Shown here piece after piece: positions 1 through 10,283 of a DNA stretch of 64,000 bases; position 1 is the first letter of the stretch, and every line of letters starts with the position of its first letter. The position numbers and the translations under genes were made by a program. The notes beneath the pieces are model-generated. The model searched no databases, was not told the DNA's origin, and saw nothing but the letters and a program-made list of their open reading frames with translations. This stretch comes from an uncultured Clostridia bacterium (GTDB taxonomy: Bacteria; Bacillota; Clostridia; TANB77; CAG-508), in NCBI GenBank assembly GCA_944389475.1, contig CALXMM010000006.1, positions 6,755 through 70,754 of the forward strand, given 5' to 3'.

Positions 1-761
1 ATTTTTGTTCCATCAGCTTTCACAGGATAATATATATCATTATTATGTGCTGAACACCCTGTTGGAGTATGTTTCATCCATAACACTTGTTTTTCATCAT
101 GTTTTCTTGCATAATGATATTTAATATCGGACTTTTCACCTGATTCAAGACTTGGTAAATCCCCTATGGCTTCTCTCAATGTTATTTCTTTTTCGGGTTC
201 TGGCCATGCCCATTCTAAGTCAATTTTATACATTTTTATTATCGCTCTTGGTCTACTTTGTGGTACACCATAATCTTTTGCATTTAAAATCTTAGCTTCA
301 ATTGTATATTTATTAGCATATTTATCAGTTAATATCTCTTTTAAAGTACATAATTTATCTTTGTAGGGTAATTTTATTTTTAAAAAACCAGGAACATTCT
401 CCATCAAGATATAGTCAAAATCTTTTTGGTCTATAACATCTAACACATCAAATACTAAATAATTTCTTGAATCTTTTAATTTATCTTCTAAATTTCGATT
501 TTTTCCTAAATTGCTAATCCCCTGGCAAGGTGGAGTTGCAATTAAAAACTTAACATCTTTTTTAATTTGACTTAAAAATTCATCCTTTATTTTTTTATCT
601 CTAATATCTCCAACTATCATTTTAGTTTTTGGATACATATATTGATAAAATTCTCCTCTTTTTTCTAATAACTCATTTGCAACTACAATTTCTATTCCAG
701 CATTTTTAAAATATGTTTCTGCTATTCCTGCACCTGCAAACATTGATGCTCCTTTAATCAT
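1..761 (-). CDS. DNA (cytosine-5)-methyltransferase, HgaI-type; 3' part runs off the window (not in the ORF track)
   Basis: My translation from ATG 761 (RBS AAAGGAG) gives MIKGASMFAGAGIAETYF..ANE..GDIRD..TPPCQG..MENVPG..DYGVPQSRPRA..WMKHTPTG. This covers C5-MTase motifs I, IV (PCQ), VI (ENV) and VIII, and the frame is open to the edge. Confidence 0.95.
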   Translation of the reverse strand, partial: MIKGASMFAGAGIAETYFKNAGIEIVVANELLEKRGEFYQYMYPKTKMIVGDIRDKKIKDEFLSQIKKDVKFLIATPPCQGISNLGKNRNLEDKLKDSRNYLVFDVLDVIDQKDFDYILMENVPGFLKIKLPYKDKLCTLKEILTDKYANKYTIEAKILNAKDYGVPQSRPRAIIKMYKIDLEWAWPEPEKEITLREAIGDLPSLESGEKSDIKYHYARKHDEKQVLWMKHTPTGCSAHNNDIYYPVKADGTK

Positions 762-915
762 TCTGTCTTTTTCTCCTTTATAAATTTAAAATATATTTTT
801 ACAACTTTCCATTTTTCATTGCTTAGTCATCTATTAAAATCAATAATATTCACTTTATTTACAATATATATTTATATCACAACTATTTATTAAGATAAAT
901 AGTTTTCTTGTATAT

Positions 916-1290
916 TTATTTTTCCAAATACACAAACGACTGAGGCGCAGATTTTACCCCATAGCATGCTAATTCCTTAGGCTCATCATATTTTTTTACA
1001 TCTGTTAATTTATATGCTATAGCATTACTCCTATTTTTAAAATACTTACTATAGAACTCAAAATCTATTCCAGAATAATTTTTAGTTTTTTCCCATAAAT
1101 TATCAGGCGTATCTTCCAAAATCTTTTCCACCTTTGCTTCACCCACAACTTTCATAATTGGTGAAGTTGAATATATGATTATTTTATCCACATTATGTTT
1201 ACACTTAATTTTTCTATATTCATATTTTTTGCTTCCATTTAAAATTTTTTCCACAAATTTTGGCTTAATTGAAATTAAAATATTACACAT
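916..1290 (-). CDS. Stand-alone ASCH (PUA-like) domain protein
   Basis: ISIKPKFVEKILNGSKKYEYRK matches the ASCH signature (SIKP..IL.GxKxxExR); ends in the typical APQSFxY. Confidence 0.88.
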   Translation of the reverse strand: MCNILISIKPKFVEKILNGSKKYEYRKIKCKHNVDKIIIYSTSPIMKVVGEAKVEKILEDTPDNLWEKTKNYSGIDFEFYSKYFKNRSNAIAYKLTDVKKYDEPKELACYGVKSAPQSFVYLEK

Positions 1291-1361
1291 AATTCACTTA
1301 CCCTCACATTTTTATATTTATCATAAGTATTATAAATACAACAAATTAAATTTAATGTATT

Positions 1362-2873
1362 TCACATTATTTCAAACATATTTTGACTATGTCCTTCTTT
1401 TATTATCTTTTCTAAACTTTTTCTATCAATCCTCAATGGTCCTTGAATAGGAACTTTTACAATATTATTTTTTAATAAAAATTTATATGTAATTGGTCTT
1501 TCAAAAGTTACATAATGTTTAAACATTATAACTAAACTATCTAGTTTAGCAACTTTTTCCAATTCTTCTTCGCTATAAGCTGTTCTCTTTCTAACCAAAT
1601 TAAAGATTTCATTTTTCGAATTAAACTTATTCCATGTTGTTTCTATTATTCCTAATGTAGTTATAGCTTTTTTATCAGTTGATGCATAAAATAGTATAAT
1701 ATCTCCAGGATTGATTATTTTTATTTTAGCATTAGAAATGAATGCTTTTTTTATAGCATTAGCTGATGTATCTTTACCTTGAGTATCATTAATACTTATT
1801 TGATATTCATCTTCTGCATCTTCAAATAATAATTTATGATATTTTGGCTTTATTGGAAAAATAAATATGTTTTGATTTTTTAATTGAACATATGGATATT
1901 TACTTTTATCCCTCATATTTTTTACATATACAGCTTCCCTTTCAATTGTCTCATCAGGTTTAAACGTGTTTTTATATGTATATAACTCAAATCCATATTG
2001 TTTTAATAAATAAATTAATGCATCCTGTTTCTCAAAAGTTGTAACATATAACTCATCAACATTCTTTTTTAATGCTTCATTAACCATTATTTTTATAAAA
2101 CTTTCTCCTATCTTTTTTCCAGTATCAGCAACTTTGAATGTACTTACCTTTATTCTTTTAGCTGGTTTAAATGGTTTTTCGAATGTTGAATAATCCTCTT
2201 TCTCATCTTCTTCCTTTAGCATAAGAAAAGATGTAACTTTATTTTCTTTATTTGTAGTTATATAAGCCATTCTTCCTTCTTTTTGTTTTCTTATAAACCA
2301 ATCATCAAACCCCAAATAATCTCTTCTCAAAGTTGTAAAAAAATCATCATTTAAATCCATATTATATAAATATTCTTGTTTTATAAACACAGGAGTTTTA
2401 ATAAAAACTTCTTCCTCATTTTTAAATTTCTCTAGTGCATCATCAATTGACAAAACTCTATCGTTCAAATTTAAAATTTTGGATTTCTTTACAAGTCTTT
2501 TATCATTGGTAATGAAATAACTTACGCAATTTTTCATTACTGCATATAACATTTCATTATCAATTTTATCATTTTCATTGTTGCATCCAACAATTTTATT
2601 AAATTCCTCTGTCATTTTAGGCGGATGATCTATGATATTATAAACTTTTAATTTTGAGATAAATATTGCTTTTTTCTTTTCATCTCTTATTTTATTAGCT
2701 TCCATAAATGTCTCAGGATGTATTGTAATCATATATTTATTTGAATCATATAAAATTTTAGTTAATTTTGATATTTTTTCATCCAATACATGATCATCCA
2801 AAATGTAAATCATCATATTAGTATCTAAGAGTATTTTTTCTTTCATAATTACTTCCTTTTTATTTACATTCAA
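1362..2873 (-). CDS. PIN + GNAT + ASCH/EVE-like three-domain protein
   Basis: N-terminal PIN (LLDTN..E..D..FITND), central GNAT (KVSTFKVADTGKKIGESF..ELYVT), C-terminal ASCH-like domain (FPIKPKYH..PGDIILFY). Start is either TTG 2873 or ATG 2846. Confidence 0.85.
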   Translation of the reverse strand: MNVNKKEVIMKEKILLDTNMMIYILDDHVLDEKISKLTKILYDSNKYMITIHPETFMEANKIRDEKKKAIFISKLKVYNIIDHPPKMTEEFNKIVGCNNENDKIDNEMLYAVMKNCVSYFITNDKRLVKKSKILNLNDRVLSIDDALEKFKNEEEVFIKTPVFIKQEYLYNMDLNDDFFTTLRRDYLGFDDWFIRKQKEGRMAYITTNKENKVTSFLMLKEEDEKEDYSTFEKPFKPAKRIKVSTFKVADTGKKIGESFIKIMVNEALKKNVDELYVTTFEKQDALIYLLKQYGFELYTYKNTFKPDETIEREAVYVKNMRDKSKYPYVQLKNQNIFIFPIKPKYHKLLFEDAEDEYQISINDTQGKDTSANAIKKAFISNAKIKIINPGDIILFYASTDKKAITTLGIIETTWNKFNSKNEIFNLVRKRTAYSEEELEKVAKLDSLVIMFKHYVTFERPITYKFLLKNNIVKVPIQGPLRIDRKSLEKIIKEGHSQNMFEIM

Positions 2874-2887
2874 CCAAATCCTTTTAT

Positions 2888-3412
2888 TTATGCTTTTTTA
2901 TTTGATAAATATTGGCAATAAAATTCATAATCTGATTCATTAAAACAAACTAAATATATTTTTTCAAAATCTTTTTTATATTTAATAGTTGTGTCTATTG
3001 CAATTTTCCCTCCAACAGCTTGTGGAACTTGATATACTCCCATTCCTAAGCAAGGAAAAGCAATTGTTTTAATTCCATTCCTTTTTGCTAATTCATAAGA
3101 ATTAATATAGCAATTTTCTAACAATTCTTCTTTATTTTTTACCGTATCATCATACCATTTTGGTGCAACTGTATGTATAACATGTTTAGCTTTAAGATTA
3201 TATCCTTTTGTAATCTTTGCCTCTCCAGTTTTGCATCCTCCTAATTTTCTACATTCTTCTAAAAGTCCATTTCCAGCTCTAGCATGTATTGCACCATCTA
3301 CACCTCCACCACCTAGAAGTGATTCATTTGCTGCATTTACTATTGCATCTACTTCTAATTCTGTTATATCACCTTTTAAAATTATAATATTATCAAATTC
3401 ACTCTTTATCAT
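2888..3412 (-). CDS. Macro domain protein (O-acetyl-ADP-ribose deacetylase / ADP-ribosylhydrolase, YmdB-like)
   Basis: GDIT..DAIVNAAN..LLGGGGVDGAIH..G..VIHTVAP..IAFPCLGMGVY. Confidence 0.95.
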   Translation of the reverse strand: MIKSEFDNIIILKGDITELEVDAIVNAANESLLGGGGVDGAIHARAGNGLLEECRKLGGCKTGEAKITKGYNLKAKHVIHTVAPKWYDDTVKNKEELLENCYINSYELAKRNGIKTIAFPCLGMGVYQVPQAVGGKIAIDTTIKYKKDFEKIYLVCFNESDYEFYCQYLSNKKA

Positions 3413-3438
3413 TTTTATATTCCTCTTCTTTTTCTATT

Positions 3439-3467
3439 ATTATACATTATAATACATAGACTCACAA
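3439..3467 (-). promoter_or_regulatory. Sigma-A-like promoter of the macro / PIN-GNAT-ASCH operon
   Basis: TTGTGA-17 bp-TATAAT with an extended TG, 26 bp upstream of the macro start. Confidence 0.65.
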
Positions 3468-3542: not shown

Positions 3543-4256
3543 TCAATCTCCAACCCCAAAGTCTGTATTTTCCAATAAAATATCAATATTTTCATAATCC
3601 TTGTATTTTGGATAAACTTGTCTAACAAATTCCTCTTTTAATTTTGTATCAGCAGGCATTATATCATCCATTTCTTTATATAAATTCACGCAAACTCTTT
3701 CAAAATTCTTTATGCCTATTTCTATATCATTCTCAATCTCTTCTAAATTTTGTCCTTTTACTCCAACTAGCAAATTAATTTCATCAAATGTATTTTTTAA
3801 ATCATCTAAAGTTGGGTAACCAAAACCTTTATTAAAAACTTTTTCTCTAATTTCTGCATCAAAAGTTTCCACTCCACCTTTTACTTTTAATGTTATACCA
3901 TTTGATGCACATTCTTTTCTAAATTCTTCTATTTGTTTTTTGTACATGTAATGACTCTCTATAATTAGTCTTTTAATCCCTTTGTTAATACAAGTTTTCA
4001 TCAATTCTTCTTTACTTTTCGCATTTAATTCAAAAATACTACCAGAGTTGATTGCTTCCAAAACACCAAATTCTCCTGTAACATTTTGCAAGACTTCATA
4101 ATTTATTTTAAATTGTTCCTCCGGATTACTATTTCTATCTAAATGATAATTGCAAAATTTACATTTACTCCATTTACATCCATTTCCTATTAATAGAACT
4201 ATTTCTCTTTTATCTTTATTTAAAATCTTTGAATATCTGTCCATCTTTTCCTCCAT
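3543..4256 (-). CDS. Short radical SAM protein, queuine lyase (QueL)-like
   Basis: CxxxCxxC (CKWSKCKFC). The REIVLL, GVLEAINSGS, ESH, GVETFD and terminal ENTDFGVG blocks match my recollection of the clostridial QueL family. Confidence 0.65.
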   Translation of the reverse strand: MEEKMDRYSKILNKDKREIVLLIGNGCKWSKCKFCNYHLDRNSNPEEQFKINYEVLQNVTGEFGVLEAINSGSIFELNAKSKEELMKTCINKGIKRLIIESHYMYKKQIEEFRKECASNGITLKVKGGVETFDAEIREKVFNKGFGYPTLDDLKNTFDEINLLVGVKGQNLEEIENDIEIGIKNFERVCVNLYKEMDDIMPADTKLKEEFVRQVYPKYKDYENIDILLENTDFGVGD

Positions 4257-5621: not shown

Positions 5622-6066
5622 TTATTGCTTTTTTTCATACCAATCTGCAAACACTTTAAATGAATTAATTGATTTTTCTCTTTTTCTATTATCCCTTTCT
5701 TCCTTTGTCATTTGTGCTAATGTTTTATCATATCCATATGGTATAAATATATACCATAAATCTGACCATTTTTCATTTGTATCATTTCCTAGAATTTTTT
5801 TAGATAATGTTCCATTATGTCCAATGTAAAATTCACAAAAGCTCTTGGGAATCCATTTAGTTCATCTATCCAAAAGCCAGAATCTAATGATATACATGGT
5901 TTATTTACTAATTTATATGCTTCTTCAACTTTTACTTTAGAGATATATTTTATATTATCACTTCTAGGTTCATCTAAATCGTATTCTTTATATTTGCATT
6001 TTTTAAAACCTTTTGTGCTGATGCAATTTTTCCTTTATTATGTGTTACAAAAATTAATTCTTCCAT
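5622..6066 (-). pseudogene. Disrupted Ham1/RdgB-type non-canonical purine NTP pyrophosphatase
   Basis: Three reading frames join into one Ham1-like protein: MEELIFVTHNKGKIASAQ / EYDLDEPRSD..PCISLDSGFWIDELNGFPRAFV / HNGTLS..KWSDLWYIFIPYGYDKTLAQM. Frameshifts lie near 5985 and 5820. Confidence 0.8.
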
Positions 6067-6132: not shown

Positions 6133-7320
6133 TTATTCTTCAAACATATTTTTTCTATTATATTTTTTACAATTTAATTTTTCTTTTAAATAAATACATT
6201 CTTCCAAATCAATATCAAATGTATTAGCTAAACATACAACATAATAAAGTACATCCTGTAATTCTTCTTCTATTGTTCCTTTTATTTCCTTTCCTTGCAT
6301 TCTTACATTTTCATTAACATCTTTTGCAAGTTCTCCTACTTCTTCCATTAACTTAAGCATATACTTTTCTTTTGTATTATTTTTATGATTAATTTTGCTT
6401 ATGCATTCTTGTAATCTTTTTATTGTTAAATCTGCTTGCTTTGGTTTTCTACCTCTCTTAGATTTTTTTGGAGTAAAATTAATATCCATTATTTCATCTG
6501 TATTTTGATATTGTATTGGTTGCATTGGAATTGTTTGCAATTCTTGATAAGGATCATCAAAGTCTTTTGAATAATCAATTTTATCTAATTTTCTTGTTTT
6601 AGTCATTTGACCTATATTTGTTGCTACAGATACATTTTCCAAATTGTAATTCATATTTCCAATAGTTTCTGCTGCTTCTGTAATTACATTATCATTAATT
6701 TTCTTTTTTCTTCCTCTTTTAGCTGGTACTTTTTCTAAATTGTTTTGTCTTACTATTTGAGTTTGCTCTACATTATTATTTTTTTCTATCTTATTATTTG
6801 TTTTCTTTGGAATATCTATTATTTTCTTTTTGGCTAAATCATTTTGTTTTACACCATATAAAATAGCTAATTCTTCATTTTCTAATATAGTTTTAAATGC
6901 CTTTTTATAATCATCTATTTTTTCATCAAGTAATTCTTGATTTGCTATATATTCTATGCTATCTTCTGGTAAATTCATAAACTCTTGGGCTGTATAGAAT
7001 ATGTTGATTAGTGCTATTACATTTTTGGCAAATTTTTTCTTCTTGTAATTTATTAATTTTTTATCAAATAAAATTATCTTATTTTTTGCCTCTATATATT
7101 CCTCTAAAACATATTTTTCCAAATTATATTTTCCCCAAACTTTTAGGATTAAAGTACCATTTGTATTTTCCTCAAATATAGGAAATAGTATAAAATTCAC
7201 ATCATTTTCTTTTAAGCATTTTGGAAAAAACATCTGATATTTTCCTACAGGATTGTATTCTTTCCAGTTATCCAATATTCCATCCATTAATGCAATTCCG
7301 TTTTCTAATTCTTCTTCCAT
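6133..7320 (-). CDS. Protein with unknown N-terminal domain, low-complexity linker and C-terminal MazG-like pyrophosphohydrolase
   Basis: C-terminal LMEEVGELAK..IEEELQDVLYYVVCLAN..IDLE is the MazG ExxE..ExxD motif; the first ~290 aa are not recognised. Confidence 0.8.
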   Translation of the reverse strand: MEEELENGIALMDGILDNWKEYNPVGKYQMFFPKCLKENDVNFILFPIFEENTNGTLILKVWGKYNLEKYVLEEYIEAKNKIILFDKKLINYKKKKFAKNVIALINIFYTAQEFMNLPEDSIEYIANQELLDEKIDDYKKAFKTILENEELAILYGVKQNDLAKKKIIDIPKKTNNKIEKNNNVEQTQIVRQNNLEKVPAKRGRKKKINDNVITEAAETIGNMNYNLENVSVATNIGQMTKTRKLDKIDYSKDFDDPYQELQTIPMQPIQYQNTDEIMDINFTPKKSKRGRKPKQADLTIKRLQECISKINHKNNTKEKYMLKLMEEVGELAKDVNENVRMQGKEIKGTIEEELQDVLYYVVCLANTFDIDLEECIYLKEKLNCKKYNRKNMFEE

Positions 7321-7381: not shown

Positions 7382-8803
7382 TTAACTTTCTTTATTTAAT
7401 AAATTTCTTGCCATTTGTACTCCGGATGCTGATGCCATCATTAGTCCTCTTGTCATTCCTCCTCCATCACCTATAGAATATAATCCTTTTACACTTGTTT
7501 CAAAATTATTATCTATTACAACTCTGTTACTATAGAATTTGATTTCCGGAGCATATAATAAATTTTCAGGATTTGCAAAACCTTCTACAATTTTATCCAT
7601 ACTTCTAATAAATTCCAAAATATCTGTCATTGTTCTATAACCTAATGAAAATGTTATATCTCCTGCTACTGCAGATTTTAAAGTAGGTTTTATTTTATTT
7701 TTTTCTAATTCATAATCCCAAGTTCTTTTTCCTCTATAAATATCTCCTAACCTTTGAACTACAATGTTTCCAGCTCCTAGTTCATTTAGATTTTTAGCTA
7801 TATTCCTTCCATATTCTATTGGTTTATCAAAAGGATACTCAAATTTATGTGATACTAAAATCGCTAAATTTGTTTGTGTACTTTTTTTATCTTTGTATGA
7901 ATGTCCATTTACTAAATCTATTCCTTCATCATATACCTCTGAAGAAACAAATCCACTTGGGTTTTGACAAAATGTTCTTACTTTATCTCTATATGGCTCT
8001 GGATGTCCTATAAATTTTCCCTCATACATATATGCATTAATGTCTTTCATAACCTCATCTGATAGTTCATATCTTACACCTATATCTACTACTCCTGCTT
8101 CTGTTTTTATTTGATGCTCATTACACATATCTACTAACCAATTGGCACCTTTTCTTCCAACTGCCATAATTATATTTTTTCCATATATTTTTTCTTCTTC
8201 AGTTCCTTTGTTATGCTTTACTATTACACCTTTAGCTTCATTGTTTTCTATAATTAAATCTTTTACTTCTGTTTCAAACATTAAATTGATATTATTTTCT
8301 TCTAGATAATCTTCTAACTTTTTATACAATTCATGTGCCTTTTCAGTTCCTAAATGTCTAATAGGAATATCTATTAGTGTAATTTCTTCTTTTTTTGCTT
8401 TTTTCTTTATTTCATCAATTTCTTTTTTATAATGTGTGCCTTCTAGTTTTGGATCTGCTCCAAAATCTAGATATATTTTGTCCGTATAATCTATTAATTT
8501 CTTTGTTTCTTCTACACCCACATATTTATGTAGATCTCCTCCTACATAGAAATCCTCATCCTCTTTGTTGTATAAAGAAAGTTTTCCATCTGAAAATGCT
8601 CCAGCCCCTGAGAATCCACTTGTTATATTACAAAATGGTTTGCATTTTATACATTTGCCAATTTTATCTATTGGACAATTTCTTTCTTCTACACGTTTGC
8701 CTTGCTCTATTAGTAAAATTTTTTTGTTTTTATCATGTTGTAACATTTCGTATGCAAAAAATATACCACCAGGTCCCATTCCTATTACTATAGCATCATA
8801 CAT
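7382..8803 (-). CDS. FAD-dependent oxidoreductase (uncharacterised clostridial family)
   Basis: GMGPGG Rossmann motif, GAGAFSDGKL, RTFCQNPSG, C-terminal GDGGGMTRGL. Confidence 0.85.
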   Translation of the reverse strand: MYDAIVIGMGPGGIFFAYEMLQHDKNKKILLIEQGKRVEERNCPIDKIGKCIKCKPFCNITSGFSGAGAFSDGKLSLYNKEDEDFYVGGDLHKYVGVEETKKLIDYTDKIYLDFGADPKLEGTHYKKEIDEIKKKAKKEEITLIDIPIRHLGTEKAHELYKKLEDYLEENNINLMFETEVKDLIIENNEAKGVIVKHNKGTEEEKIYGKNIIMAVGRKGANWLVDMCNEHQIKTEAGVVDIGVRYELSDEVMKDINAYMYEGKFIGHPEPYRDKVRTFCQNPSGFVSSEVYDEGIDLVNGHSYKDKKSTQTNLAILVSHKFEYPFDKPIEYGRNIAKNLNELGAGNIVVQRLGDIYRGKRTWDYELEKNKIKPTLKSAVAGDITFSLGYRTMTDILEFIRSMDKIVEGFANPENLLYAPEIKFYSNRVVIDNNFETSVKGLYSIGDGGGMTRGLMMASASGVQMARNLLNKES

Positions 8804-8873
8804 TTATATCACATCCTATCTTTAACTTACTTTATCCTCATAAGTTCTAAAGTTCTCTACTTTCTTGACAAGA

Positions 8874-9365
8874 TTACTTTATTCTTTCATAAGTAACGAA
8901 GTAATAATCCAATTTATTATTTTCATCTTTTATTCCTTTTTCCCTGCTAACTTCCTTCCAAATTTTATCATCAATTCTAGGAAAAAATGCATCACCATCA
9001 AAATCCTTTTCTATTTCTGTTACATACATTTTCTTTACATATGGCATTAAGAAATTATATATCATTGCTCCTCCAATTACAAAAGCCTCTTCTTTTCCTT
9101 CTATTAAATCTTGAATTTGAAGTAATGAATGTACAACTTCTACATTTTCATCATGAACTTTAAAATCTGGATTATTACTTAATATTATATGCTTTCTATT
9201 TGGAAGTATTTTTCCTAAAGACTCAAAAGTTTTTCTTCCCATAATTATTGTATGTCCTGTTGTTAAATTTTTAAAATGTTTTAAATCTTCTGGCAAATGC
9301 CAAATTATCTTATTATCTTTTCCAATTATATTGTTTTTTGCTTTTGCTACTACTATACTTAACAT
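8874..9365 (-). CDS. folA: Dihydrofolate reductase
   Basis: IGKDNKIIWHLPEDLKHFK..MGRKTFES..LPNR..IGGAMIY. Confidence 0.97.
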   Translation of the reverse strand: MLSIVVAKAKNNIIGKDNKIIWHLPEDLKHFKNLTTGHTIIMGRKTFESLGKILPNRKHIILSNNPDFKVHDENVEVVHSLLQIQDLIEGKEEAFVIGGAMIYNFLMPYVKKMYVTEIEKDFDGDAFFPRIDDKIWKEVSREKGIKDENNKLDYYFVTYERIK

Positions 9366-9425
9366 CTTTCTCTCTCCTATTCTAAGTTTTATAAGTTTGT
9401 TTATTCTATATGATGTAACCCTTCA

Positions 9426-10283
9426 TTATTCTGCAACTGGTATTTTACCAATTTTAATTTCTTTTTGATAATCATAATCCTGTACTTCAAAATCCTCTAC
9501 CTTAAATTGGTAAAAATCCTTCGTATCATTCTTTATAACTAATTTTGGTGTAACATCCATTGGTTTAGCCTCTAATAATCTTTTAACTAGAGGAATATGT
9601 CTATCATAAATATGGCAATCACCAATATTATGAGTTAAGGTTCCAACTTCTAATCCAGATACTTGTGCAAACATATATTGTAATGCAGCATATTGCATAA
9701 CATTCCATCCGTTTGCAGTTAACATATCTTGTGAACGTTGATTTAATATTAAATGTAATTTTCCTTCTTTTACCAACCATTGGGTTCCATATGCACATGG
9801 CTCTAAATTCATATCTTTTAGTTCTTCATGATTAAATATATTTGTCATAATTCTACGACTTGATGGGTCATTTTTTAGTAAATATAAAACATAATCAACT
9901 TGATCCATCTCTTTAATTCCTTCTTTTGTTTTGAATTGATATTTCTTTCCCAATTGATATCCATATGCTTTACCAATACTACCATTTTCATCAATCCATT
10001 GATCCCAAATATGTGAATTTAAATCTTTTACATTGTTTGATTTCTTTTGCCATATCCATAATATTTCATCAATAGCTTTATAGATTGTTTTAGAATTATT
10101 TCTAAGTGTTATCATAGGAAATTCTTTTCCTACATCATATTTATTTGTTACTCCAACTATGGAATAATAATTAGCTTCACTTCCATCTTCCCATCTTGTA
10201 CGTACATGTGTCCCTTCTGATGAATAACCATGCTCAATTATCTCTTTACAAGTATCAATAAAATGTTTATCTGCCTGTGTCAT
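9426..10283 (-). CDS. thyA: Thymidylate synthase
   Basis: Catalytic PC (LEPCAY), QRSQD, HNIGDCHIYDRH; adjacent to folA. Confidence 0.97.
   Translation of the reverse strand: MTQADKHFIDTCKEIIEHGYSSEGTHVRTRWEDGSEANYYSIVGVTNKYDVGKEFPMITLRNNSKTIYKAIDEILWIWQKKSNNVKDLNSHIWDQWIDENGSIGKAYGYQLGKKYQFKTKEGIKEMDQVDYVLYLLKNDPSSRRIMTNIFNHEELKDMNLEPCAYGTQWLVKEGKLHLILNQRSQDMLTANGWNVMQYAALQYMFAQVSGLEVGTLTHNIGDCHIYDRHIPLVKRLLEAKPMDVTPKLVIKNDTKDFYQFKVEDFEVQDYDYQKEIKIGKIPVAE

Follow-up and report, generated by a model that had tools for sequence, protein, structure and literature searches.

Within a 64,000-nucleotide (nt) stretch of DNA from an uncultured Clostridia bacterium (GTDB lineage Bacteria; Bacillota; Clostridia; TANB77; CAG-508; GenBank assembly GCA_944389475.1, contig CALXMM010000006.1, positions 6,755 to 70,754 of the forward strand), which we call the window, a gene encoding a three-domain fusion protein is followed by a gene encoding a small stand-alone ASCH protein, and the two together form a PIN-containing member of the family that PADLOC catalogues as PDC-M11 and that has also been described as (PIN)-GNAT-EVE + ASCH operons. 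This assignment is secure, and we think it probable that the pair, which lies at the proximal edge of a variable restriction and defence island, works as a toxin-antitoxin (TA)-like defence module of the abortive-infection type. A preliminary description made from the letters of the sequence had proposed a wider unit, in which an upstream macro-domain gene also takes part and an acyl mark on nucleic acid is written and then read or erased; the macro, fusion, small ASCH and methyltransferase genes that it reported are all present where it placed them, co-directional on the minus strand, and are laid out as follows.

3448..911, minus strand: conserved block of the macro, PDC-M11A and PDC-M11B genes, 2.54 kb
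3412..2888, minus strand: macro gene of the MacroD type, 174 amino acids (aa), recognised by Pfam Macro
2846..1362, minus strand: PDC-M11A, the PIN-GNAT-EVE/PUA fusion gene, 494 aa plus stop, recognised by PADLOC
1290..916, minus strand: PDC-M11B, the stand-alone ASCH gene, 124 aa, recognised by PADLOC and Pfam ASCH
761..1, minus strand: dcm-type C5-cytosine DNA methyltransferase gene (TIGR00675, E-value 5.9e-30), cut by the window edge

The fusion matches the PADLOC model PDC-M11A (PDLC04422) with an E-value of 1.2e-138, over residues 13-500 of its 503-aa open reading frame (ORF) and positions 2-498 of the 501-position profile, and the small ASCH protein matches PDC-M11B (PDLC04425) with an E-value of 1.2e-46, over residues 3-123 and profile positions 2-123 of 132. 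As in PDC-M11, the two window genes are adjacent, lie on the same strand and match both models over their full length; the earlier idea of a defence-type unit is borne out in that PADLOC names both genes, while its presentation as unnamed and new has to be given up, the operon having already been described as (PIN)-GNAT-EVE + ASCH and as candidate PDC-M11. PDC-M11 appears as a phage defence candidate in the supplement of Payne et al. 2024 (bioRxiv 10.1101/2024.01.29.577857), where it was predicted by embedding within known systems, the signature which that work used for defence prediction and of which PrrC is the archetype. The same PIN-GNAT-PUA plus PUA/ASCH architecture goes back to Iyer 2013, which, as related in PMC5499597 and PMC7641849, proposed nucleic-acid acetylation; Matelska 2017 (PMC5499597) described PIN-GNAT-PUA proteins with a second PUA/ASCH gene as families PIN_15 and PIN_17, and Bell 2020 (PMC7641849) described (PIN)-GNAT-EVE + ASCH operons, reported that they are associated with restriction-modification (RM) systems of type I and predicted a TA function. 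The window shares with these operons the three-domain fusion and the second PUA-like gene, and the features by which Bell 2020 characterised them, namely a PIN fold with acidic residues, a GNAT-like fold, a PUA-like end and an RM or defence association, were all found here. The papers are computational and conflict with one another, favouring DNA or RNA acetylation, a degenerate GNAT domain, or a TA role through acetylation of aminoacyl-tRNA, and none of them, Iyer 2013 being taken as its citing papers render it, mentions a macro partner. The window thus holds no new system, the family having already been catalogued computationally.

The fusion ORF of 503 aa reported earlier does exist, being extendable to a TTG codon at position 2873, but the real length is 494 aa. 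Close homologues are all 493-494 aa long with MKEKILLDTN as their first residues, and contigs nearly identical to the window's were independently called with a 494-aa gene; because these lengths, starts and calls agree, we place the start at ATG 2846, which is preceded by AAGGAAG, and TTG 2873 is, judging from these comparisons, probably not the real start. With this placement the gap between the macro stop codon and the fusion gene becomes 41 nt, not the 14 nt given before. The fusion and ASCH genes are separated by 71 nt, and the ASCH and dcm-type genes by 154 nt.

Whole-protein sequence searches of the fusion against Pfam, NCBIfam and the PDB were uninformative for the PIN and GNAT domains, which were instead assigned with domain-wise profiles and with AlphaFold2 (AF2) models compared by Foldseek. 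The AF2 model of the fusion, built from 35 homologues, reached a predicted local distance difference test (pLDDT) score of 84, and conservation was measured in a set of 64 full-length bacterial and archaeal homologues. The domains are arranged as follows.

2846..2409, minus strand: PIN nuclease domain, aa 1-146 (Foldseek, Pfam family matches, conserved Asp)
2399..1893, minus strand: GNAT-like domain, approximately aa 150-318 (Foldseek, profile against Naa50)
1892..1365, minus strand: PUA-like (EVE/ASCH) C-terminal domain, aa 319-494 (Foldseek, weak EVE match)

The PIN sub-model (aa 1-146, pLDDT 87) retrieved 3ix7, SSO1118, Utp24/Fcf1, VapC and SMG6 in Foldseek at E-values of ~1e-3 with a probability of 1.0, and Pfam PIN_3 was matched by 17 of 28 family N-termini, with PIN_4 and PIN also matching family members. 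Residues D8, T9, N10, D93, D96, T113 and D115 are 93-100% conserved, and the acidic residues among them (D8 98%, D93 93%, D96 98%, D115 100%) are intact, as the preliminary description had judged. Two homologues carry the name 'rRNA-processing protein FCF1' given by the Joint Genome Institute (JGI).

The GNAT-like region resembles NatA/Naa50 both in structure (Foldseek, E-value 3e-6) and in the family profile (Naa50, E-value 3.9e-6), and the profile alignment sets the acetyl-CoA loop R-G-I-G-I-G of Naa50 against T-G-K-K-I-G of the fusion. The canonical GNAT motif A (Q/R-x-x-G-x-G/A), which binds the acetyl-CoA pyrophosphate, was not found in this segment, which reads T-G-K-K-I-G-E: the middle glycine is replaced by Lys/Arg, the first position is neither Q nor R, and the last glycine is 100% conserved, such that a near-invariant family motif, G-x-[KR]-x-G-E, occupies the canonical position. 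Conservation in the domain extends to K233, G243 (95%), G247 (100%), E248 (98%) and Y267, and a Y-G-F motif is kept (G285, F286, 98% conserved). For the C-terminal domain, the best structural match is ZmASCH (5GUS, Foldseek E-value 8.3e-7); the fusion's own Pfam EVE match is weak and sub-threshold at 18.3 bits, many homologues carry precomputed PF01878 assignments, and the profile of this domain reaches PDB 2ar1 with an E-value of only 0.11. We therefore call the domain PUA-like and leave open whether its class is EVE or ASCH. Its conserved residues comprise H337, N363, K367, F386, Y387, G399, R421 and F442, and from these conservation patterns all three domains of the fusion look constrained. 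The PIN, GNAT, ASCH/PUA-like and macro domain calls made earlier were thus right by Pfam, Foldseek and profile comparison.

The small protein is recognised by Pfam ASCH at 22.6 bits against a cut-off of 21.2, and a PDC-M11B family profile built from 39 sequences retrieves ZmASCH of Zymomonas (ZMO0922; PDB 5GUS/5GUQ) over its full length with an E-value of 2.4e-26. In vitro, ZmASCH binds nucleic acid and cleaves single-stranded RNA in a Mg-dependent manner, with Y47, K53 and S128 contributing, and it has been proposed as a control on cellular RNA levels (PMC5615036). In the B family the aligned counterparts of ZmASCH Y47 and S128 are Y40 and S118; Y40 is invariant, together with K21, E24 and R26, and S118 is at least 90% conserved. 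By contrast with ZmASCH, whose RNase activity is an in vitro finding, YqfB (PDB 1TE7) was absent from the B-profile search of PDB sequences at E-values up to 10, and the analogy with an acetyl-cytidine eraser therefore comes down to the ASCH fold class. The 378-aa neighbour of ZmASCH in Zymomonas has no PADLOC match and aligns with PDC-M11A at an hhalign probability of 0.2; we rejected ZmASCH as half of an A-B pair there, its neighbour being unrelated to PDC-M11A.

To place the pair within its family, one genome per GTDB species was surveyed, giving 72 loci in other species. These are spread over bacteria (Clostridia, Bacilli, Kiritimatiellia, Verrucomicrobia, Fibrobacter, Treponema, Dehalococcoidia, Alphaproteobacteria and others) and archaea (methanogens, Thermococci, Thermoplasmata), and a HMMER search returned 1,158 cluster representatives at E-values up to 1e-10 among 1.84 billion, a sporadic distribution that shows clear horizontal transfer among bacteria and archaea. 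Of the 72 loci, 67 have the ASCH partner next to the fusion, and among the remaining five, contig ends cut three; the two reading frames overlap in 32 of the 67. A neighbourhood survey, which the preliminary description had suggested for macro and RM co-occurrence, shows RM systems, other defence genes and integrases near the homologues: type I RM genes (HsdM in 8 loci, HsdR in 6, HsdS in 5), with the pair nested as hsdM-[A-B]-hsdS-hsdR in loci L034, L035 and L067; a DpnII RM system directly upstream of the pair in L001 and L006; Dcm, Fic/SoFic, RadC, GmrSD, HNH and further PDC candidates; and tyrosine integrases, next to the family at 11 of the 72 loci. What stands immediately upstream of the fusion depends on the lineage and can be a third ASCH gene, Fic, HsdM, RadC or a PI-PLC-X-like protein. 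Relatives of the window pair, like PDC-M11 as originally defined, are thus embedded in type I RM operons, whereas the window pair, which unlike the two-gene PDC-M11 is accompanied by a macro gene, stands beside a type II RM system and not inside a system. The nesting recalls PrrC/RloC, in which an RNA-nuclease module lies between hsdM and hsdS/hsdR; the likeness is one of genomic logic only, with no kinship to the fusion in sequence or fold.

Several loci carry variants of the module. A four-gene form occurs at L001 (9651-12338) and 15 related loci (64-77% identity), in which the beginning of the fusion is abutted or overlapped by an additional ASCH/DUF3850 gene of 117 aa, and an XRE-family helix-turn-helix (HTH) gene stands between the fusion and ASCH-B; relative to this form, the window has a macro gene in place of the upstream ASCH gene and has no HTH gene. 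ASCH-B forms a fusion with an AAA_17 ATPase in L052 (6096-7094) and L054 (11473-12471), from Kiritimatiellia and Verrucomicrobia, so that the XRE-HTH and AAA_17 partners of the (PIN)-GNAT-EVE + ASCH operons both recur among the surveyed loci. In the acidobacterial L106 (3818-5998), a 726-aa protein has a canonical GNAT domain followed by a PIN domain and an EVE-like end, and an ASCH-B gene adjoins.

Homologues of the family are also found on 33 plasmid records and in phages and prophages. Methanothermobacter phage psiM100 carries at 8236-9534 a PIN-containing homologue, 'ORFD' (34.6% identity, 86% coverage), which sits in the annotated 'inserted fragment IFa', and psiM100 looks like an archaeal virus with the module as cargo. 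A tblastn search of phage records showed that lambdoid E. coli phages carry PIN-less homologues, and in PhiR47_2 (GenBank PV340567.1), where they occupy the interval from cI to kil, their annotations read "GevT toxin" and "GevA antitoxin". GevT matches PDC-M11A with an E-value of 2.1e-133 and GevA matches PDC-M11B with an E-value of 6.8e-52; GevA is 44% identical to the window ASCH protein, and GevT is 30% identical to the fusion over the GNAT-EVE part. The gene order is that of the window, and the GevT and GevA frames overlap as do those of nearly half of the A-B loci, but GevT has 357 aa, is prophage-borne and lacks the PIN domain that the window fusion has.

In seven of the 72 loci (L008, L021, L030, L031, L041, L060 and L067), and also in the conspecific L120/L137 and L128, the fusion gene is split into two ORFs, while ASCH-B is still one matching ORF of normal length at every such locus. 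These splits fit the decay of a toxic gene.

PIN toxins of the VapC type and GNAT toxins of the AtaT/TacT class act on tRNA or aminoacyl-tRNA. The fusion shares with them the PIN fold with its acidic residues and the GNAT fold; it differs in uniting PIN, GNAT and a PUA-like reader in one protein, in its non-canonical GNAT motif A, and in having a downstream ASCH gene as its partner in place of an upstream VapB or RHH antitoxin.

The local context was examined in contigs ~99% identical to the window, found by exact-protein look-up. L073 and L074, with unrelated flanking sequence, carry the 2.54-kb block at 98.3-99.0% identity. Compared with the conspecific L119, locus L115 (the same as L073) shares 8.58 kb at 99.07% identity, beginning ~35 nt upstream of the macro ATG; the shared stretch holds the order macro, A, B, type IV enzyme and helicase seen in the window's species and, in L115, runs on into AbiO/Nhi-like genes, while the upstream flank of L115 is wholly different, with Cas1, Cas2, Csn2 and, farther on, a TM2 protein. 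Since macro, A and B are conserved across these backgrounds, they form one block in this lineage. Among conspecific contigs, the sequence downstream of the block switches 5 nt past the ASCH stop codon (window position 911). One alternative at this point is that of the window, in which the dcm-type gene is, as predicted from its continuation in other contigs, the first of two tandem C5-methyltransferases of a type II RM system: past the window edge follow a second dcm gene, a 494-aa REase_II (PADLOC 2.6e-45), an integrase and a variable mobile element, which carries Septu in L118. The other alternative is a SauUSI-like type IV methyl-directed restriction enzyme (E-value 1e-219) followed by Mokosh-like helicase genes. 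The swap looks like an allelic exchange, at one hotspot, of a system that writes 5-methylcytosine (5mC) for one that restricts it; the swapped stretches are 10380-15750 in L116 and 10380-16415 in L119.

The block stays while the RM module behind it swaps, and it moves with that module between backgrounds. The methyltransferase, which the earlier description had placed after the unit as its next gene, is accordingly not an obligatory partner of it, conspecific contigs carrying the type IV enzyme after the same block and Dcm-like genes lying within 10 kb at only 6 of the 72 family loci. Because the same pair stands beside either a 5mC writer or a 5mC-dependent enzyme, the PUA-like readers are unlikely to be tuned to host Dcm methylation. 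Downstream, an integrase-bounded element in L116 (15813-18490, minus strand) holds a second set on this theme, with ASCH (235 aa) and GNAT (137 aa) as separate genes, together with a 168-aa AAA_18/cytidylate-kinase-like protein and an HTH/DUF6076 protein.

Taking these observations together, we propose that the fusion would be the effector or toxin, whose PUA-like C-terminus may dock on nucleic acid, probably RNA or tRNA, or on a modified base, whose PIN domain would cleave RNA, and whose GNAT-like domain would acylate or bind the substrate. The small ASCH protein, a translationally coupled, nucleic-acid-binding RNase homologue, would neutralise the fusion, whether by sequestration or by enzymatic reversal, and keep it harmless until infection upsets the balance, and the outcome may be protection against phage. 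We arrive at a TA-like, RNA-targeting defence because of the intact PIN site, the constrained GNAT-like domain and the two PUA-like modules, because of the overlap of the A and B frames in nearly half of the loci and the PrrC-like nesting in RM operons, and because of plasmid and prophage carriage, the frequent decay of the large gene and the GevT/GevA annotation.

Several points weigh against this proposal. PDC-M11 is itself a predicted candidate, and our literature search found no validation of it and no experiment on a PIN-containing member, so that the earlier statement that no validated defence system with this gene set could be named still holds; nor did we find in the literature a publication behind the GevT/GevA annotation of PV340567.1. 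The altered GNAT motif A, as read from the alignments, appears to count against an acting transferase, and Matelska 2017 (PMC5499597) likewise noted the deviation from the motif and regarded the GNAT domain as possibly catalytically dead. ZmASCH, the one relative of B that has been characterised, occurs in Zymomonas without a recognisable A partner, and B-type proteins can therefore act alone. The fusion-gene splits could be assembly errors in metagenome-assembled genomes (MAGs), and carriage by phages would also agree with a role in superinfection exclusion, in counter-defence or simply in addiction. Finally, a search for an empty site, that is, a contig without the block, made by way of the radical-SAM gene upstream, found none, and the block was present at all eight informative conspecific places; such fixation is unlike the behaviour of defence genes, which are typically present in some genomes and missing from others.

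The macro gene had been counted as part of the unit. Its product matches Pfam Macro (E-value 2.6e-43), human MacroD2 (9.6e-44) and E. coli YmdB (5e-39), with the MacroD2 alignment covering aa 3-168, including NAAN...GGGGVDG and the G-x-G-x-Y loop, and it scores 194.6 bits with the NCBIfam O-acetyl-ADP-ribose deacetylase model, just under the cut-off of 200. It is thus, like the MacroD/YmdB deacetylases, a MacroD-type protein aligned over nearly its full length. No macro gene was found within 10 kb of the fusion at any of the 72 loci (phmmer; a 17-sequence macro hidden Markov model), and no fusion-ASCH pair at any of 25 macro-homologue loci, and on these counts a conserved partnership within the family was ruled out. 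PADLOC at E-values up to 0.01 gave no DarG or DarT match on the macro protein or its neighbours, and no DarT or other ADP-ribosyltransferase gene adjoins the macro gene, which sets it apart from DarTG; in contrast to both MacroD/YmdB and DarG, its linkage to the pair is a feature of this lineage only. Within the lineage the linkage is tight: the genes share the 98-99% identical block, and the 41 nt between the macro and fusion genes hold no terminator-like site, so that the macro gene is probably co-transcribed with the pair here. The preliminary description had named a macro gene both rarely linked and separately transcribed as grounds against its reading; the linkage is rare, but separate transcription is improbable. 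With so close a physical linkage, the macro gene may reasonably be taken as a candidate accessory gene, and it is probably an accessory or passenger limited to this lineage and not a defining component. L115 has two macro paralogues (2775-3311 and 7873-8403, ~82% DNA identity), one resident and the other at the left edge of the shared island, and the macro gene might have acted as the anchor for recombination when L115 acquired the island.

These results bear directly on the idea that the macro, fusion and ASCH genes make up one three-gene system, in which the GNAT-like domain marks RNA or DNA with an acyl group, the PUA-like domains read the mark, the PIN domain is the effector, and either ASCH-B, in the manner of YqfB, or the macro protein removes the acyl or a related ADP-ribose mark. 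We consider this quite unlikely: the shared block in two unrelated backgrounds and the short, terminator-free gap speak for it, as do the conserved loop glycines and Y-G-F motif, through which a cofactor site may persist, the existence of ASCH-fold erasers such as YqfB (PMC12707154) and BapA of the Brig3 defence operon (PMC13160076), and the acetylation proposal of Iyer 2013 as its citing papers relay it, but the macro gene is missing from all 72 surveyed family loci and its homologues elsewhere never stand beside the pair, unrelated genes take the slot upstream of the fusion in other lineages, the ASCH-B profile finds the RNase ZmASCH and not YqfB, neither an adjacent ADP-ribosyltransferase or DarT-like gene nor a DarG match was found, and the canonical motif A is altered. 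Recruitment of the macro gene, in this lineage, into the module as a genuine third member, giving a reversible enzymatic writer-reader-eraser TA coupled to the PIN nuclease, with a GNAT-like acyl or ADP-ribose-linked acyl mark on tRNA, RNA or DNA that is erased by the ASCH protein and/or the MacroD-type hydrolase, seems to us improbable. The acyl writer/reader/eraser chemistry, and the role of the macro protein in countering phage ADP-ribosylation that the preliminary description had assigned to it, are speculation.

The pair may, alternatively, be a TA addiction module that maintains the mobile island, plasmid or prophage carrying it, with no direct anti-phage role. Plasmid and prophage carriage, adjoining integrases, the toxin/antitoxin names of the GenBank homologues and the fixation of the block in all conspecific contigs examined agree with this; we nevertheless hold it unlikely, as the nesting in type I RM operons, the tight clustering with many defence genes and the cI-kil position in lambdoid phages, roughly that of the lambda exclusion genes rexAB, point elsewhere. 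It is highly improbable that the pair has a housekeeping function in processing or modifying RNA, such as tRNA acetylation or maturation, and came to lie near RM genes by chance: PIN, GNAT and PUA/ASCH domains do occur in core RNA metabolism, as in Fcf1/Utp24, two homologues bear the JGI name FCF1, the species carries the block as a fixture of a single chromosomal site, and ZmASCH has its proposed part in controlling RNA levels, yet the family is sporadic and horizontally transferred across bacteria and archaea, its contexts vary and include plasmids and phages, the fusion gene is often disrupted, and the identical block moves between unrelated backgrounds.

Two further sequence elements were examined.

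3467..3439, minus strand: promoter-like TTGTGA-17-TATAAT upstream of the macro gene (scan, 10/12 matches)
882..905, no strand: perfect, A-T-rich palindrome AACTATTTAT-N4-ATAAATAGTT between the ASCH gene and the dcm-type gene

The promoter proposed earlier is present as a motif, but such motifs occur at chance frequency in this AT-rich stretch (22 found against 25.2 +/- 5.0 expected); its -35 element (TTGTGA) lies outside the conserved block and its -10 element (TATAAT) inside. The hairpin noted after the ASCH gene is likewise present; its pairs are almost all A-T, and it folds at -8.1 kcal/mol in a 48-nt context. On the coding strand it is not followed by a U-tract, and the terminator scan gave no call there, leaving an intrinsic terminator unsupported. 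Being outside the conserved block, the palindrome forms part of the dcm-allele junction. No Rfam match was found at gathering thresholds in the whole window.

Just upstream of the block, the radical-SAM gene (3543-4256, minus strand) encodes a small protein with a weak likeness to the archaeosine enzyme RaSEA (47.5 bits against a cut-off of 212). Farther on, a frameshifted Ham1p-like (ITPase/RdgB-type) pseudogene (5625-6066, minus strand) lies between a MazG-fusion gene and GNAT genes, its three pieces being 90-100% identical in tblastn to an intact 189-aa gene in the conspecific L144. The MazG-fusion gene (6133-7320, minus strand), which adjoins thyA/folA-type genes in conspecific contigs, encodes a 395-aa protein whose MazG pyrophosphohydrolase domain is confined to the C-terminus (aa 316-382), the long, lysine- and asparagine-rich N-terminal region having no Pfam match.

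The PIN-GNAT-EVE + ASCH module is widespread yet sparse and has been flagged repeatedly by comparative genomics, in a prediction that has stood since 2013. To this the window adds a clean natural example that heads a defence island, with an allelic swap between type II RM and type IV restriction downstream and a lineage-specific macro companion. Learning which group the GNAT-like domain may transfer, which targets the PUA-like domains may bind and how the ASCH protein might hold back the PIN nuclease would resolve that prediction and could bring to light a new form of modification-sensing immunity.

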